64,000 nt of DNA from Elusimicrobia bacterium CG1_02_37_114 (GTDB lineage Bacteria > Elusimicrobiota > Endomicrobiia > CG1-02-37-114). The stretch's first letter is position 1. Each line of letters starts with the position of its first letter. This document shows, piece by piece, positions 25,206-32,224 of this stretch. The DNA lies in assembly GCA_001871125.1 (NCBI GenBank), contig MNXB01000117.1, positions 5,654 to 69,653 of the forward strand, written 5' to 3'. The notes under the pieces were generated by a model. It had not been told where the DNA came from, made no database searches, and saw only the letters and a list, made by a program, of their open reading frames with translations. The position numbers and the translations under genes are program-made.

Positions 25206-26570
25206 TTAAAAAATCCATTCAGAAGGAGAAGATTTATCTTTGAGTGTGTTTTTAATTTTCTCTCTATATTTCGGTACTAACGATAATTCGTTGTTATCAA
25301 TTTTGTCTTTCAATGATATAAGAGACTTTATCACTTCACGGGTTACTCTTTCATCGCTGTCACCGGCGAGGTTAAAAAGTATATCAAGGGTTTCCGGTTT
25401 GGCAATTTTTTCCAGTGCACGGACTACATTTGCTCTTATACCGACGTTTGGGTTATTAATCATTTCATTGAGAAAATTTAATGCAGTTTCTGGTGAATGT
25501 TTATATATATTATAGGCATGTGTGGCAATGCGGTCTCTTGCCTGTTCCAGAGTCGGTTGTAGGCCATAGACGCTCTTATCCGGCTCGGACTTTTCAGCTA
25601 ACCGCTGTAATTTTTCTTTTTGCTGTTCAGTAAGTAGTTTTTCTGTGCCTCTCTCAAATTCAAGTTCCTTTTTCAGTTTTTCATGTCCTTTGGAAAGATT
25701 TATCCTCAAAGTCTTTTCAAAATCAGCTCTCTGGTTGGCAAAGGAGATTTCGCTGATAATGCGAGTTTTTTCAAGTTCGTCCTGATGTATTTTTTTTGAC
25801 AAGTCCATCAATTCGGTTTCTTTTTTCTTAATTATATTTTTTAACCTTTTTGTGGTCATTAACAAACCTGATATGAGCAGAATAGAAAAGGCGGATACTA
25901 TTGTTACAAAAGTTTTGTATTTATTTAGTTTGTCTTTAACTCCCTGAATTTCAATCAGTATTTTCTCATTTTCCTGTTTTTGGGCCGATGTTTCCCTCAC
26001 TCTAATTGTCTTTACTTTTTGAGTTTCATCTGTTTTTTGGGATTTTTCTATAGTGCTCTGTTCAATGTGGGTATCCAGTTTTTTTGCTGGAGGATCAGGT
26101 TCCCTATCTATTTTAAATTTATCGGGTATTTCAAGCCTTTGCCTGGTGTCTGATTTTGTATCCTTCTTGCGCTCGGGATTAAGGATTTCATTGGTTATGC
26201 GGTATAATTCTTTCACCTCGTAATTGTTGGGCGCAATTTTCAGAGATTTGTTGATAAATTTCATTGATTCGAGATATTCATGTTTGGCATTATAATATTT
26301 CCCCGCCTCAATAAGTATTTTCAGTAAAAACTGTTTTGCCTGTGCGTTTTCCGGCTGTATTTCCAGCGCCTTTTCAAGGTTTTCTGTTGATTTTGCGTAA
26401 TCACCCTGAAGATATTTTTCTGTGGCGGCATTGAAATACATATCAAACTGTTCGGACGGTTCTGCAGAATATAAATAAGATAATCCTACGGATAAACAGG
26501 GATTTAAAAGCGATAAGGTAACCAGAAGCAATACAATAATAAACGGACTGTCCCGATGTCCTTTAATCAT
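25206..26570 (-). CDS. membrane-anchored TPR / HEAT-repeat protein
   Basis: Signal peptide, N-terminal TPR, one TM helix, coiled coil, C-terminal HEAT/PBS-lyase-like repeats. Confidence 0.6.
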   Translation of the reverse strand: MIKGHRDSPFIIVLLLVTLSLLNPCLSVGLSYLYSAEPSEQFDMYFNAATEKYLQGDYAKSTENLEKALEIQPENAQAKQFLLKILIEAGKYYNAKHEYLESMKFINKSLKIAPNNYEVKELYRITNEILNPERKKDTKSDTRQRLEIPDKFKIDREPDPPAKKLDTHIEQSTIEKSQKTDETQKVKTIRVRETSAQKQENEKILIEIQGVKDKLNKYKTFVTIVSAFSILLISGLLMTTKRLKNIIKKKETELMDLSKKIHQDELEKTRIISEISFANQRADFEKTLRINLSKGHEKLKKELEFERGTEKLLTEQQKEKLQRLAEKSEPDKSVYGLQPTLEQARDRIATHAYNIYKHSPETALNFLNEMINNPNVGIRANVVRALEKIAKPETLDILFNLAGDSDERVTREVIKSLISLKDKIDNNELSLVPKYREKIKNTLKDKSSPSEWIF

Positions 26571-28048
26571 TTTTCTTCACCCATAACATCAAGTATTGTC
26601 TGAACGCGTTTTAATAACTCCATTGTTTCCTTACGTTCAGGGTCAAGTTTGATAGATTCCATCAGTTTTTCTTTTGAGGTTTTATAATCTTTTTTTTGAA
26701 TCAAGAACTGCGTTTCTATGAGAAATAGTAAAGATTGTGCTTTTTTATATTCAGGCATTATGGATAGAGTAACCCTTATTGATTCTAAGGCAGACGGATA
26801 ATTGTTCTCCAGATAACTTTTTTCAGATTCTCTATATTTTTTTATGGCAAAGTCTTTTGTCGTTATTTTTTTAACTTCGTCAAATAACATTTTTGCGTCA
26901 TAAGAATCGGGCCTGCGTTCAAGAATTCTGCCCAGGACTTCTTCTGCCTTCTTGTATTCACTACCTTCAAAACATTTTCTTGCTATTGCCAATTGTGTGT
27001 TAATCCAGGACTCTGATTTGAGTTTCTCCCGTTCTTCCTTTATTTCTTTTTTGGTAATCCCTCTCTTTTCTTCTAATTGTTTTTCGGCTTCGTTTAGTCT
27101 GGAAATTCTTTCTTCTATAACTTCTTTTTCAATTTCAGGTATAAAACCAAACCTGGTAGATATGCTGAATTTATTTATGAAATCTATCTGATGGATACCC
27201 AGGGCATAATCAAAATCTATTGCCCTTGATGTAATACCGAACCCTGCCGTTATTTCTCTCTGATTAATTCCCACCCGGACAGGAAATTGATTGAAGAGTT
27301 TATATTCCATTCCCATGCCGTACTTAATTACATTCCTGGCAGAGGCGTTCAGCAAATAAAGGTCAACCATTATTTTTATCTCGGGTTGAAAAAATTCCCG
27401 GGTAAATCCCATTTTGATATTTGTGCCGGAATTATCGGGTCCGAGCTGTAGCGGAAGAACGTTCTGTAAATTTAATCCATACGTGGCATATCTTGAAATG
27501 TGATATATAATGCCTATATCAACACCGTAGGCCTGAACATTATAAGCGTCTATTTGCTGCTGGACAAACCGGACGTTAGTGCCTATATCTAATTTATTGG
27601 ATTTTCTAAATGCATAAGTTAAAACATATTGAGACAATATTTCTTCAAATTTATAGCCCAGATTTTTTCCTGCTGAATTTGTCCGTTCAGCAGTTCCGGA
27701 ATTTAACCGGACAATGCTCAGACCGAATACCCCTCTCTTGTTTAATGGATATGCAAAATTTGTTGCGGTAAACCGTGTTTCATAAAATAATGGGACACTC
27801 AGAACGTTCATTTCTGAAAAATATATACCGGATAAGCCGGCAGGATTCCAGTAAGGAGAGCTGACATCCCCGCTGCATGCAGTATATGCATTACCGAATC
27901 CTCCTGCCCGTGCATTTGCAGTGAACAACGACAGTGTTTCAAAAGGCAATCCCCCTCCCGGGCAGTAAACTACCGGGATTAATATAAACAGCACCGTCAC
28001 TGAAACCGACAGTGTCAAAAAATGACTTATATTCTTTATTTTCCCCAT
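26567..28048 (-). CDS. outer-membrane beta-barrel (FadL/PorV-like) fused to a C-terminal TPR domain
   Basis: Signal peptide, N-terminal SPYWNPAGL motif, alternating beta-strand pattern to about residue 320, then coiled coil plus TPR. Confidence 0.5.
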   Translation of the reverse strand: MGKIKNISHFLTLSVSVTVLFILIPVVYCPGGGLPFETLSLFTANARAGGFGNAYTACSGDVSSPYWNPAGLSGIYFSEMNVLSVPLFYETRFTATNFAYPLNKRGVFGLSIVRLNSGTAERTNSAGKNLGYKFEEILSQYVLTYAFRKSNKLDIGTNVRFVQQQIDAYNVQAYGVDIGIIYHISRYATYGLNLQNVLPLQLGPDNSGTNIKMGFTREFFQPEIKIMVDLYLLNASARNVIKYGMGMEYKLFNQFPVRVGINQREITAGFGITSRAIDFDYALGIHQIDFINKFSISTRFGFIPEIEKEVIEERISRLNEAEKQLEEKRGITKKEIKEEREKLKSESWINTQLAIARKCFEGSEYKKAEEVLGRILERRPDSYDAKMLFDEVKKITTKDFAIKKYRESEKSYLENNYPSALESIRVTLSIMPEYKKAQSLLFLIETQFLIQKKDYKTSKEKLMESIKLDPERKETMELLKRVQTILDVMGEEK

Positions 28049-31400: not shown

Positions 31401-32224
31401 AATCCCATCCCATATCTGGGGGTGGGGATTGATTCGGTTAACTTTTTCCATTCGTTCAGGCTTGGGCTATACACCCATAAGTCATTCAAATTATTATTGT
31501 TATCCCGTCCCCCGAATAGATAAAACAAATTGTTTTTGCTGTTATAAGTAAAGCCGCAATAATGCCTTGCTGTTGGCGAAGTCAATGTTGTGATATATGA
31601 CCAGGAATCGGCTCCTACATTATACATCCACAAATCATTATAATAAGTGGTAGCAGATGAACCGCCGAACAGATAGACTTTATTGGTAGTTGAACTATAG
31701 GCCATACCAAAAAAAGCACGGGAAGGTGGGGAAGGTGAGTTAGTAGAAGTCCAGATATTCGCGTTCAAATCATAAATCCATGTATCACCAAAATATTCAT
31801 CAACGCTCTTCTGTCCGCCAAACATTAGAAACCTGCCGGCGCCGATACTGACTATTTTATGTCCATATCTTCCAGAAGGTGACGGCGAAGGTCCCCGCTG
31901 GGTCCACCTGTTGTTATTTATGTTATAAATCTGTAAATCCGTCAGTCCAGAAGCACTTCCGGTCGTACCGCCATGGAGTATTGCACTTGATAGATAACTG
32001 TCAAATGCAGATGAATACCGTTCAGCTGGTGGATTATCTACTGATATACTCTGCCATTTGTTGTAAAGTCTTAATACTGCACTTTCGCCTGTTCCGGCTA
32101 CATCAACTCCATTGCGTACAAATGAATTGAATTGAGTATCTGTAGTGAAGGTGTGTGTGCTATATGCATACAAAAAGCCGGAGAATAGATAAACCAATAT
32201 AGTTATTGGAAGTTTTTTTTTCAC
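28475..32224 (-). CDS. 1249-aa secreted Kelch-repeat beta-propeller / FN3-Ig repeat protein with T9SS-type (Por_Secre_tail / FlgD-Ig-like) C-terminal domain
   Basis: Signal peptide. Kelch motifs (GRYGHKIV..FGGQ, LFGGSS, LFGGRD, LFGGNTGG). Repeated about 90-aa Ig/FN3 units (PNGGE.LSG...I.WS). C-terminal NIFPNPF...IRIYTLLGDIVYE...W.GRN..G..VANGMYL. Confidence 0.8.
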   Translation of the reverse strand: MKKKLPITILVYLFSGFLYAYSTHTFTTDTQFNSFVRNGVDVAGTGESAVLRLYNKWQSISVDNPPAERYSSAFDSYLSSAILHGGTTGSASGLTDLQIYNINNNRWTQRGPSPSPSGRYGHKIVSIGAGRFLMFGGQKSVDEYFGDTWIYDLNANIWTSTNSPSPPSRAFFGMAYSSTTNKVYLFGGSSATTYYNDLWMYNVGADSWSYITTLTSPTARHYCGFTYNSKNNLFYLFGGRDNNNNLNDLWVYSPSLNEWKKLTESIPTPRYGMGFDYLPSIDRIFLFGGNTGGTGGDETWFFNCKSTSWINVTPADPPEARYNHNLSVFSDYLPICFGGVGATYYNDLQKYLVTSSGSFVSTFIYAPFNTSLKWRTISAPAVLFSSTTLKFQISHSTNSVNWDEYRGANGSTSTFYEYTTTPLDIWSGHNNKPYIRVKGYFGSSEPPSSAKLDILEITYNRTPYPPNLSYPGDTSGNLCINQTSPTFILNRPNDDDGDISFSYKLQVDDNESFSSPEDQYFASTDSVVSYTPGSSLYEGKWFWHVYAQDESSSAWSNTYSFTIDTTAPAAITQLTAETNPDLNRQIDLSWISPETITNGQFIIVYSSTKSIVTGDDWSNAETEGNKKTGSYTGYPLGSKFETFVSNLMDGTTYYFSVRIYDAAGNISAIPSINPSAYTNAAPVVTLLSPDGGENLSAETTIQWSYSDPNMDDIDRSSFSFEIKVSSDGGNDFNLTIATGTLASLSSGTTSYLWNTRRVANGTEYKIKVTVYDPRGLGGWDISNSTFTIYNANEAPKVTVTYPNGGETLSGIVPINWSINDINLADTHLTRIYISTDGGVNFSLLEAIASPATYYPWNTSVYPNDKYYLIKASTTDNWGLSGEDISNSTFSISNNNLPPNSFNLLSPQNGSNVSSLKIDLTWESNGDPNSGDRIVYTVYYSTNSGFANAIISSTTNNSLSVGAGNISEDKTYYWKVEAEDQLGLKRISNKTFSFYVLNRNKAMSNDNIVYAEVIPNLPDDRYLYIKRVSAQGDPAIESANTDTVNDRSLVNIPSEVYDIAVYDRTQQIQIIESVSVEIKFNITDSDNDGYYDGTNVPVEKIRIVFLDRTKNRWILPEGKQSLDLTKKQVSAVTDHLSVFTITGSDTPNELLSGINIFPNPFSAGNEEVRVWYILTQDSNMTIRIYTLLGDIVYETTFGTTGQPEGWRSEFRWDGRNNENQLVANGMYLCIIFAESAAAKQREARYIAVVK

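Follow-up and report, generated by a model that had tools for sequence, protein, structure and literature searches.

How does a 1249-residue Kelch protein encoded in an Elusimicrobia genome reach the cell surface, and why does its gene lie among genes for an outer-membrane barrel and several response regulators? The reading we prefer, and believe to have an even chance of being correct, is that the barrel is the cognate carrier or anchor of the neighboring giant and communicates with a phosphorelay on the other side of the envelope, the genes forming a conserved operon for surface display and signaling.

The module extends from position 25206 to 37786, entirely on the minus strand, and thus reaches past the interval 26567-32224 to which the initial annotation drew attention. 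Genes for cargo, barrel and signaling proteins are separated by only -13 to +55 nt. The first gene of the cluster, and likely its transcriptional regulator, encodes HTH_17 and REC domains (37202..37786; Pfam Response_reg E=3.5e-26, HTH_17 E=1.6e-9); the cluster at locus L003 is likewise headed by an HTH_17-REC gene. A membrane histidine kinase follows (35797..37212; HisKA, HATPase_c). Its gene shares 11 nt with the one upstream, and hydropathy indicates about five to six hydrophobic segments in residues 40-189, with no large periplasmic loop. Two hybrid REC-GAF-histidine kinases come next, at 34222..35796 (Response_reg, GAF, HisKA, HATPase_c) and 32635..34194 (Response_reg, GAF_2, HisKA, HATPase_c), and orthologs of the latter also lie before the giant genes of L003 and L089.

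Directly upstream of the giant gene (28475..32224) is a single-domain REC (32243..32638; Response_reg E=5.4e-33) that carries the acidic pair, phospho-Asp, Thr and Lys positions and shares 75% identity with its positional counterpart in L089. A second single-domain REC (28036..28419; Response_reg E=2.6e-23) lies between the giant and barrel genes, overlapping the latter by 13 nt. These two RECs had been described as lying on either side of the barrel gene; instead, they flank the giant gene. The barrel protein (26567..28048; 493 aa) has this second REC upstream, and downstream a gene for a 454-residue membrane protein (25206..26570) with which it shares 4 nt. The latter protein consists of an N-terminal hydrophobic segment (residues 10-28), TPR (TPR_2/TPR_8, residues 43-75), a charged linker, a transmembrane helix (220-238), a coiled coil and HEAT repeats (HEAT_2, 367-422), and is referred to here as TPR-TM-HEAT.

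The architecture initially proposed for the giant, namely a signal peptide, Kelch propeller, FN3/Ig-like repeats and a distinct C-terminal domain, is confirmed in full. Translation starts at a GTG codon, and the N-terminal sequence MKKKLPITILVYLFSGFLYAYS looks like a signal peptide. The propeller occupies approximately residues 60-350 (31175..32047; PF24681 E=3.5e-56, PF24981 E=2.3e-42), where further Kelch models and Kelch proteins of the PDB also match (E down to 5e-41). The Ig/FN3-like repeats have weaker support (Ig_Rha78A_N 38.8 bits, fn3 17.3), and Big_7 (25.1) and Big_13 (26.0) score close to their cut-offs. Over its full length the giant is 39% identical to that of L089 and 38% to that of L003.

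Its last 95 residues (1155-1249; 28478..28762) contain, in order, the motifs NIFPNPF, IRIYTLLGDIV, WDGRN, VANGMYL and YIAVVK, which are common to all neighboring giants. The suggestion that this is a T9SS/FlgD-Ig sorting domain (CTD) holds, albeit marginally for this protein by itself: FlgD_ig scores 28.0 bits (cut-off 27), TIGR04183 scores 23.3-23.4 when the tail is scanned alone (cut-off 23) and 18.4 in the full protein, and PF18962 remains below its cut-off (18.1 versus 27). Within NCBIfam, its best partial matches are to the CTD portions of the M6i, PorZ and PorU models. Among related terminal domains, 75 of 79 match TIGR04183 at E<=0.01, 67 match the PorZ tail and 66 the PorU tail. On HMM and fold evidence, the tail is a type-A sorting domain. 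Two T9SS proteins, PorZ and PorU, keep their CTD, which PorQ binds in the first case and PorV in the second (PMC10202324).

The barrel had been proposed to belong to the FadL/PorV family on the basis of its SPYWNPAGL motif (residues 64-72; 27833-27859), in which N68, P69 and A70 are invariant among 92 relatives. Its PorV side is borne out, and its FadL side is not. The NF033709 PorV/PorQ family model gives 86.6 bits, 3.4 below its cut-off of 90, whereas the FadL Pfam model Toluene_X gives 15.7 (cut-off 29.7); the PorV_fam, PorQ and PorV2 models match all 92 related barrels. In an AF2 model of the protein (pLDDT 84), a beta-barrel spans residues 78-300, within an N-terminal plug and FadL-fold barrel region at residues 41-302 (27143..27928). 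The closest solved structure is PorV, which Foldseek prefers by four orders of magnitude. Fold and HMM evidence identify it as a PorV/PorQ-like protein with a FadL fold, rather than a FadL-like one.

The barrel continues into a single 58-residue helix (304-361; 26966..27139; AF2 pLDDT 85-93) that is 50% Glu/Lys/Arg and is probably a periplasmic spacer; this region is missing or shorter in more distant homologs. Six helices follow, forming a TPR-like repeat domain that is periplasmic by topology (residues 365-490; 26579..26956). The fusion of barrel, charged helix and TPR is real, but less of an oddity than it was taken for: no fewer than 49 clusters (50% identity) share it.

The pairing of barrel and CTD is not incidental. 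A same-strand ORF ending in the sorting domain lies within 700 bp of 98 of 154 related barrels from many phyla (60/94 in genome loci and 38/60 in an independent metagenome set), and 72 of 79 CTD ORFs found in flanks adjoin a barrel. The passenger domain changes from locus to locus (Kelch, Big_5, FN3) but the CTD is always present, suggesting that what is recognized is the tail and not the passenger. Barrel and CTD distances are correlated (r=0.87, confounded by shared ancestry), and in L016 several divergent pairs coexist in one locus (34% barrel and 26% CTD identity). Pairs come from many MAGs labeled as non-FCB, namely Elusimicrobiota, Nitrospira, Spirochaetia, Firestonebacteria, Deferribacteres and Clostridia-labeled bins, although such labels may be wrong.

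The order REC, giant, REC, barrel-TPR, TPR-TM-HEAT recurs in six independent loci (the present one, L001, L003, L005, L008 and L089), with histidine kinases upstream in the arrangement, unrelated flanking genes and barrel identities of 29-43%. TPR-TM-HEAT orthologs follow the barrel gene in the five other loci. The best-conserved protein of the module is the REC between giant and barrel, which is 59, 55, 47 and 41% identical to its counterparts in L089, L003, L008 and L005; the barrel reaches just 40% (L089) and 34-35% (L003/P0006). Given its tight packing and recurrence, "uncharacterised secretion/attachment module" was a fair description.

When a barrel has a periplasmic tail, signaling genes tend to lie next to it. 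In the genome set, REC or histidine kinase genes lie within 2.5 kb of 11 of 32 barrels extended at the C-terminus by 100 aa or more, versus 1 of 62 without such an extension (p=1.7e-5). The replicate set alone shows the same direction without significance (4/20 versus 2/38, p=0.17); pooled, the figures are 15/52 and 3/100 (p=7.6e-6), all counts being from phylogenetically non-independent loci. Downstream of other tailed barrels are genes for periplasm-sensing kinases, PP2C phosphatases or HD-GYP proteins.

These features suggest how the module might operate. The giant would be exported by Sec, and its type-A CTD would be recognized by the PorV/PorQ-family barrel encoded two genes downstream, with crossing of the outer membrane presumably provided by a translocon. 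The barrel would carry the giant and then keep it at the outward-facing surface of the outer membrane; judging from sequence, it may be a shuttle or a fixed anchor. On the periplasmic side, the rigid Glu/Lys-rich helix and TPR domain could touch the TPR that the inner-membrane protein TPR-TM-HEAT places in the periplasm. On the cytoplasmic side, the HEAT domain of TPR-TM-HEAT, through putative contacts with the two single-domain receivers, would link the assembly to the upstream hybrid kinases and HTH-REC regulator. Signals might pass from surface contact to the phosphorelay, or from the phosphorelay to display. The kinases may also simply govern transcription of the operon.

Carriage by way of a T9SS faces two objections: no core T9SS genes occur in the window (the whole 64-kb stretch analyzed) or in the 10 kb flanking it on either side, and Elusimicrobiota fall, in the NCBI taxonomy, outside the FCB group, whereas the literature consulted assigns T9SS to Bacteroidota/FCB. 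Both the lack of core genes in that region and the non-FCB labels would suit autonomous two-partner export akin to Slam/T11SS or two-partner secretion, in which the barrel-TPR protein is itself a cargo-specific outer-membrane translocator operating without SprA/GldKLMN: its TPR would capture the CTD and its barrel would deliver the giant to the surface, with or without the help of BAM. Slam (T11SS) has a TPR fused to a 14-stranded barrel and an adjacent cargo gene, much as the present locus joins a TPR to a FadL-fold barrel beside its cargo; C-terminal peptides are common ligands of TPR domains, and homologs P0012, P0014 and P0015 give faint TPR_Slam Pfam matches. We nevertheless consider such export unlikely. 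A plugged FadL-fold barrel has no known protein-conducting activity, partners of related barrels include giants of >3000 aa, and 38 of the 60 paired barrels in the genome set lack a TPR tail, which therefore is not required for pairing. The same pairs also occur in T9SS-bearing phyla (for example, Cloacimonadota and Bacteroidota), and the uncertainty of MAG labels weakens the taxonomic argument. A general PorV or PorQ serving every CTD protein of the genome would fit the family-level matches and the nearest solved structure, but is scarcely credible given equivalog scores of 36.6 (PorV, cut-off 250) and 61 (PorQ, cut-off 220), multiple divergent pairs per locus in related genomes, as in L016, and orthologous barrels that always lie beside their own giant.

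The barrel conserves the NPA motif that FadL has in its hatch (PMC8407342), as expected of a FadL/TodX-type importer of hydrophobic compounds that neighbors the giant by chance. This seems very improbable in light of the Toluene_X score, the Foldseek ranking, the recurrent CTD adjacency in two independent sets, and a cluster devoid of fatty-acid or aromatic catabolism genes. Alternatively, the barrel could be a carrier or anchor that takes no part in trans-envelope signaling, the TPR tail serving to fasten it structurally to peptidoglycan or to proteins of the envelope, and the role of the two-component genes being confined to operon transcription. Purely structural periplasmic modules do occur on other PorV-like barrels (OmpA_C/Pal-like in 3/92, YbgF/CpoB in 4/92), an HTH-REC regulator heads the operon, and the link to signaling genes does not reach significance in the replicate set. 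However, the single-domain REC adjoining the barrel lacks an output domain and yet is the module's best-conserved protein, a dedicated TPR-TM-HEAT protein always follows the barrel in this barrel-TPR subfamily, and in other subfamilies the tailed barrel is followed by a kinase or phosphatase whose sensor domain is periplasmic. We are accordingly doubtful of a tether alone.

A cognate carrier or anchor coupled to a phosphorelay would mean that an uncultured Elusimicrobia bacterium, outside the phyla with known type IX secretion, combines a giant bearing a type IX-style tail and that giant's own PorV-like barrel in an unstudied display route, and that the association with response regulators perhaps serves sensing through the surface protein as well. 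Among known systems, Slam differs in having the reversed domain order and a DUF560 match, which the present barrel lacks. In Treponema pallidum, three FadL-like proteins end in helical C-terminal tails that contain TPRs. PorV binds CTDs by means of long extracellular loops (PMC10994853), whereas the present barrel falls some 60 positions short of the family model and has short predicted inter-strand loops, which argues against the preferred reading. PorQ holds PorZ and PorV holds PorU, as the barrel might hold its giant, and in P. gingivalis the kinase PorY is a periplasmic binding partner of the PorA CTD (PMC12152298).

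Nine minus-strand genes lie in close succession in the window. In transcription order, they encode a regulator with HTH_17 and REC domains (37202-37786), a multi-pass membrane histidine kinase (35797-37212), two REC-GAF-HK hybrids (34222-35796 and 32635-34194), a single-domain REC protein (32243-32638), a giant protein of 1249 aa (28475-32224), a second single-domain REC protein (28036-28419), a barrel-TPR protein of 493 aa (26567-28048), and a TPR-TM-HEAT protein of 454 aa (25206-26570). The barrel-TPR protein, called here the window barrel, has the same sequence (100% identity) as hypothetical protein AUJ85_09910 from the metagenome-assembled Elusimicrobia bacterium CG1_02_37_114. 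Gaps between the nine genes range from -13 to +55 nt, which is compatible with a single operon. The operon structure is deduced from gene spacing alone, because scans for promoter and terminator consensus sequences gave no more matches than shuffled sequence did and are uninformative in either direction. The TPR-TM-HEAT protein has hydrophobic segments at residues 10-28 and 220-238 and a basic stretch after the second, an arrangement predicted to place its TPR in the periplasm and its coiled coil and HEAT repeats in the cytoplasm.

Several other features of the window were recorded. A 628-aa minus-strand ORF (42056-43942), upstream of HlyD and AcrB genes (37896-41932), joins a TetR_N domain (residues 14-59) in frame to a TolC-like efflux outer-membrane protein (OMP), for which a separate signal peptide is present at residues ~197-220. 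There is no stop between the two parts, and the ORF reflects loss of a stop codon, a mistake in assembly, or an unusual fusion. A low-GC island (50463-55453; GC 0.30 versus ~0.38 elsewhere) is probably a restriction-modification or defence islet; it encodes a D12-class adenine methyltransferase, an N6/N4 methyltransferase, a nucleotidyltransferase, and two ORFs (220 and 496 aa) without a family match. A patch of mobile and toxin-antitoxin genes (18051-23857) includes an AbiEi/AbiEii pair (22112-23857), an IS3-like rve transposase (19799-20665), a Gp49/HTH_3 pair (18832-19562), and one more HTH_3 gene. The interval 55542-63816 holds Wood-Ljungdahl corrinoid genes (three CdhD-like, RACo activase, pterin-binding); another signalling trio, of GGDEF, REC, and GAF-histidine kinase genes, comes directly after them.

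The initial annotation described the giant as a Kelch and Ig/FN3 protein with a signal peptide and a terminal sorting domain like that of type IX secretion system (T9SS) cargo, and this description is confirmed. A typical signal peptide is visible at the N-terminus, the Kelch propeller matches PF24681 (E=3.5e-56) and Kelch structures in the PDB (down to E=5e-41), and several Ig/FN3-like repeats score near Pfam cut-offs. The sorting domain, or C-terminal domain (CTD), reaches the last residue of this predicted Sec-exported protein. FlgD_ig matches the last 95 residues with 28.0 bits against a gathering score of 27 (full protein). With TIGR04183, for which the cut-off is 23, the full protein scores 18.4 and the isolated last 105-107 aa score 23.3-23.4, and PF18962 is below threshold (18.1 versus 27). 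The CTD regions of the PorZ and PorU models are among the best partial HMM matches. An AlphaFold2 model of the last 250 aa, based on a three-sequence alignment, contains six CTD strands with pLDDT of 51-77 (45 overall) and is too weak for a fold search. When homologues were sought with the CTD alone, the word prefilter left only four candidates, which yielded one match; the C-terminal 570 aa produced nine matches, with the CTD in only one of those inspected.

Because the HMM evidence for the window tail is marginal when taken alone, 79 related ORF tails neighbouring PorV-like barrels were collected. TIGR04183 matches 75 of the 79 (E<=0.01), the CTD of the PorZ model 67, and that of the PorU model 66, whereas the type-B model TIGR04131 matches five. 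The tail of an M6-like model is matched by 58. These matches assign the tail family, as judged by HMMs, to the type-A sorting domains. The elements PNPF, GDxV, WxGxN, GxY, and a terminal xxVxK are common to the window giant and the giants of related loci L001-L008, and the importance of a conserved lysine of the T9SS sorting domain has been noted (PMC10994853).

Some related loci also encode small proteins (133-193 aa) that consist of little more than a signal peptide and a sorting domain (L005, 6543-6962; L008, 9355-9837; L050, L068, and L083, ~9297-9875). Their genes lie either immediately ahead of the barrel gene or between it and the giant gene. The products, which recall PorA, may serve as adaptors or as decoy CTDs.

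The window barrel had been proposed to be a FadL/PorV-family barrel fused to a TPR module. The predicted structure (AlphaFold2 with 17 homologues, pLDDT 84) bears out the fusion: plug helices and a beta-barrel over residues 78-300 are followed by one 58-residue helix (304-361) and then six further helices. The family assignment holds for the fold, which is that of FadL with an N-terminal plug and has PorV as its nearest structure, and for the FadL-type NPA hatch motif, which is present as SPYWNPAGL and whose NPA core is invariant in 92 relatives. It falls short in the scores. The PorV/PorQ family model NF033709, aligned over residues 42-299 and model positions 9-325 of 326, gives 86.6 bits (E=2.3e-24), a near miss of the cut-off of 90 by 3.4 bits, and FadL/TodX PF03349 gives 15.7 bits, below the gathering score of 29.7. 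One related Elusimicrobiota barrel clears the NF033709 cut-off (104.2 bits), and homologue P0013 carries the NCBI name 'PorV/PorQ family protein'. The equivalog models score 36.6 versus 250 (PorV, NF033710), 61 versus 220 (PorQ, NF033711), and 40.4 versus 325 (PorV2), and PF03687 (UPF0164) gives no match at E<=0.01. By predicted fold and near-threshold score, the window barrel is placed in the PorV/PorQ superfamily; it is neither a PorV, PorQ, or PorV2 equivalog nor a Slam protein.

In all such OMP barrels, the last strand ends on the periplasmic side, so the C-terminal tail should be periplasmic. Glu, Lys, and Arg make up 50% of its 58-residue helix. More distant homologues have a shorter helix or none, as a spacer would be expected to behave, and the tail contains repeated helix-turn-helix pairs that match TPR models. 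The fusion is less unusual than had been supposed. When 1.84 billion representatives were searched with a profile, 1215 proteins matched at E<=1e-30, and ~49 of the best 150 of these align from end to end and share the barrel-helix-TPR length. Because this full-length architecture is shared so often, the fusion defines a sizeable unannotated family and no singleton.

The neighbourhood of giant and barrel is meaningful. Five further independent loci (L001/L002, L003/L004, L005, L008, and L089) have the same core of giant CTD protein, REC, barrel-TPR protein, and TPR-TM-HEAT protein; their barrels share 29-43% identity with the window barrel, and their flanking genes differ from locus to locus. 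REC-GAF-HK genes are also found upstream in L003 and L089, and an HTH-REC gene in L003. The window giant aligns collinearly over its full length with those of L089 and L003 (39% and 38% identity, respectively). In L005, L006, L007, and L008, the passenger differs (Big_5, FN3) and the tail is kept. The REC protein beside the barrel shows 59, 55, 47, and 41% identity in L089, L003, L008, and L005, respectively, compared with 40% (L089) and 34-35% (L003) for the barrel, and by this measure it is the best-conserved protein of the module.

Species-representative genomes were scanned with the pattern YWNPAG and then with barrel and tail HMMs built in this analysis. An 8-sequence barrel alignment served as locus query, the 17-sequence alignment being too divergent. 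The loci from the genome and metagenome scans are those among the matches listed, and thus constitute a sample and no census. The genome scan yielded at least 79 loci, including those of Elusimicrobiota/Endomicrobiales, Firestonebacteria, FCPU426, Eisenbacteria, Cloacimonadota, and KSB1; Nitrospira, Spirochaetia, Clostridia-labelled MAGs, and a few Bacteroidota are also represented among the matches listed. All 92 complete barrels among these matches fit the PorV_fam, PorQ, and PorV2 models (best E=5e-127, with PorV2), and their Pfam matches are to UPF0164 (63), PorV (48), FadL (45), and PorP_SprF (4).

Among the matches listed in the genome set, 60 of 94 barrels are accompanied by a tail-terminated ORF that lies on the same strand and no more than 700 bp away. 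These ORFs usually stop 0-100 bp before the barrel gene, on its upstream side, and often encode 1000 to >3300 aa, and 72 of 79 tail-terminated flank ORFs adjoin a barrel. An independent metagenome sample gave an adjacent tail ORF for 38 of the 60 barrels listed, so that both sets together contain 98 paired barrels among the 154 listed. Cloacimonadota loci among these matches have a ~1030-aa CTD protein directly upstream of a ~340-aa barrel. Several divergent CTD-barrel pairs occur inside single loci (L013, L015, and L016, the last with three pairs). PorV-like pairs are also present in complete Elusimicrobiota genomes, among them CP096137.1 and CBDIQC010000001.1. A mirror-tree correlation between barrels and CTDs (r=0.87) carries little weight because shared phylogeny explains it.

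Two further observations concern individual loci. Among the matches listed, PorV-like barrels are carried by Clostridia-labelled MAGs (L013, L015, L055, L059, and L061) and by one labelled Selenomonadales (L078), with an adjacent CTD protein or CTD-like repeats in five of these six Firmicutes-labelled loci. These bins are either diderm Firmicutes or misclassified, which bears on the spread of the pair. In two Elusimicrobia MAGs (L017, 11601-13610; L025, 11626-13644), a ~540-aa barrel-TPR protein has no adjacent CTD protein and is followed by a ~670-aa protein. That of L017, the one scanned, has a FliG C-terminal-like domain (TIGR00207, E=2.2e-29) and TPR; a rotor-switch-like domain is an unexpected partner for an outer-membrane barrel.

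Roughly one in three barrels of the genome set (32 of 94 among the matches listed) extends at the C-terminus by 100 aa or more. In the alignment of 92 listed barrels, the tails are of TPR (23), OmpA_C-like (3), or YbgF/CpoB-like (4) kinds; the best match to the YbgF/CpoB (Tol-Pal) model has E=2.5e-44, and OmpA_C/Pal-type domains are peptidoglycan-binding. The barrel of L012 (10001-13765) has 1254 aa. Among the matches listed, REC or kinase genes lie within 2.5 kb on the same strand for 11 of 32 tailed barrels versus 1 of 62 plain barrels (p=1.7e-5), and the metagenome replicate shows the same direction (4 of 20 versus 2 of 38) without being significant alone (p=0.17); both p-values overstate the evidence because the loci are phylogenetically non-independent. 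Pooled, the listed matches contain 15 of 52 tailed and 3 of 100 plain barrels near signalling genes. In L006, L014, L016, L018, and L055, the tailed barrel is followed by a periplasm-sensing kinase (TM, ~140 aa, TM, HAMP) and then by REC-GAF-HK or REC-GAF-HD-GYP. Other partners are a HAMP-PP2C phosphatase (L011), an RsbW-PP2C-TPR protein (L023), and a sensor cyclase (L007); in the window subfamily, the partner is the TPR-TM-HEAT protein.

The best-supported reading, from sequence and by analogy, is that the window barrel serves as the cognate carrier or anchor of the adjacent giant. The barrel would bind the CTD of the giant, carrying it as PorV carries substrates and retaining it uncleaved, as in the PorQ-PorZ and PorV-PorU pairs. 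Such binding is suggested by the gene adjacency found among the listed barrels. Because the passenger varies with a constant tail, and because divergent pairs share single loci, it can be argued that recognition is tail-specific and pair-specific. Set against the carrier or anchor reading are the shortfall of 3.4 bits in the PorV/PorQ family score and the compact barrel with short predicted loops; the loops with which PorV binds CTDs inside SprA are long (PMC10994853). The periplasmic helix and TPR of the barrel, the TPR-TM-HEAT protein, and the two output-less RECs could form a chain across the envelope to the upstream phosphorelay, along which signals might run inward or outward. All contacts in this mechanism are ones that we infer. 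The initial annotation had proposed an uncharacterised secretion/attachment module, an interpretation that is supported here in the form of a pair that probably works like T9SS carrier/anchor pairs.

The reading as a FadL-type nutrient importer was rejected on the HMM and adjacency evidence. The window barrel is also not taken to be the general PorV/PorQ of a canonical T9SS, for which the equivalog scores are far too low and which does not accord with several divergent pairs per locus. Membership in Slam/T11SS was rejected because DUF560 is absent and the domain order is reversed. The translocon itself poses a separate question. GldK/L/M/N, SprA, PorU, PorP, or related families are absent from window ORFs of at least 100 aa and from the 10 kb beyond either window end (matching metagenome contigs), and literature searches for T9SS in Elusimicrobia returned nothing relevant. 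In the NCBI taxonomy, Elusimicrobiota falls outside the FCB group and belongs directly to Pseudomonadati, and T9SS is described as confined to Bacteroidota or the FCB superphylum (for example, PMC9143113). Either these lineages have an unrecognised T9SS or the pair works without one. An autonomous two-partner system that dispenses with T9SS, loosely analogous to Slam/T11SS, seems rather unlikely. We likewise consider it improbable that CTD/PorV-like pairs constitute a self-sufficient, T9SS-independent pathway widespread outside the FCB group, with the tailed barrel doubling as a trans-envelope transducer. Under that proposal, surface contact or a ligand at the Kelch giant would be relayed through the barrel helix and TPR to the TPR-TM-HEAT protein and on to CheY-like receivers; if true, a secretion carrier would here underlie a novel mode of signalling at the cell surface.

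T9SS carriers and anchors have so far been studied almost solely in Bacteroidota. Pairing of a type-A CTD protein with a PorV-family barrel of its own is common across many candidate and non-FCB phyla (98 of 154 barrels among the matches listed). Either T9SS-like export is far wider than stated or the carrier-tail pair is self-sufficient. The sizeable unannotated subfamily of barrels with a periplasmic helix and TPR, found amid receivers, kinases, phosphatases, and c-di-GMP enzymes, suggests that the display of giant surface proteins is coupled to trans-envelope signalling. The family also provides an evolutionary setting for the TPR-tailed FadL-like OMPs of Treponema pallidum, which are vaccine candidates reported to lack a counterpart, and thus gives context for syphilis research.

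Among known systems, PorV of Flavobacterium johnsoniae (6H3I chain F) is the type-A T9SS carrier. The window barrel fails its equivalog model, is ~60 model positions shorter, bears an additional 190-aa periplasmic helix and TPR tail, and is encoded beside one particular cargo and REC genes in an Elusimicrobia MAG, with no T9SS gene within the examined sequence (the window and 10 kb on each side). In the attachment complexes PorQ-PorZ and PorV-PorU of Porphyromonas gingivalis, a PorV-family barrel keeps a surface protein through its uncleaved CTD (PMC10202324). The window CTD resembles those of PorZ and PorU in its partial HMM matches, but the giant has no PorU or PorZ domain beyond the CTD, and the pairing is encoded in cis. 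Type-B CTD cargo can have a dedicated PorP/SprF-like barrel alongside, as with SprB and SprF, and the barrel gives surface anchorage (PMC9143113). The window pair likewise combines a large surface protein with its own FadL-like barrel, encoded side by side; it differs in that the CTDs are of type A and the barrels belong to the PorV/PorQ branch.

The models NF052325 (PorV2) and NF052323 (T9SS-dependent M6-like inactivated metalloprotease) presumably describe one gene pair, and both are matched broadly in our set of barrels and CTDs. Unlike that pair, the window barrel scores far below the PorV2 cut-off, and its cargo is a Kelch/Ig protein with no metalloprotease; PorV2-type barrels also have neither a TPR tail nor signalling neighbours. 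The treponemal proteins TP0548, TP0859, and TP0865 are FadL-fold barrels with an NPA-type hatch and a presumptively periplasmic, helical, TPR-bearing C-terminal domain; the tail is a three-helix bundle, the proteins were interpreted as nutrient importers, and the authors encountered no tail of this kind in any other FadL (PMC8407342). By architecture, the window barrel has the same order of barrel and helical TPR tail, and 63 of 92 relatives match PF03687 (UPF0164). The treponemal design therefore appears, from these family matches, to be widespread, with many members in the family found here. Neither a CTD cargo nor a T9SS has been described for the treponemal FadL-like OMPs.

Slam (T11SS) proteins combine an N-terminal periplasmic TPR with a DUF560 outer-membrane barrel, lie next to their cargo gene, and recognise cargo through a C-terminal beta domain. 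The window protein similarly joins a periplasmic TPR to an outer-membrane barrel (here of FadL fold) beside a cargo gene, and the cargo would likewise be recognised by a C-terminal beta domain, but its TPR is C-terminal, it has no DUF560 match, and the Slam barrel is outside the PorV/FadL sequence family. In LapA/LapD/LapG, cytoplasmic signalling acts inside-out to control whether a giant adhesin is displayed at an outer-membrane pore. A precedent for communication from CTD to kinase is PorA-PorY-PorX of P. gingivalis, in which a CTD protein signals to a two-component system (PMC12152298). The window components are not homologous to PorY, PorX, or LapD/LapG and, unlike in those systems, the proposed link would run through the barrel-borne TPR tail and the TPR-TM-HEAT protein.
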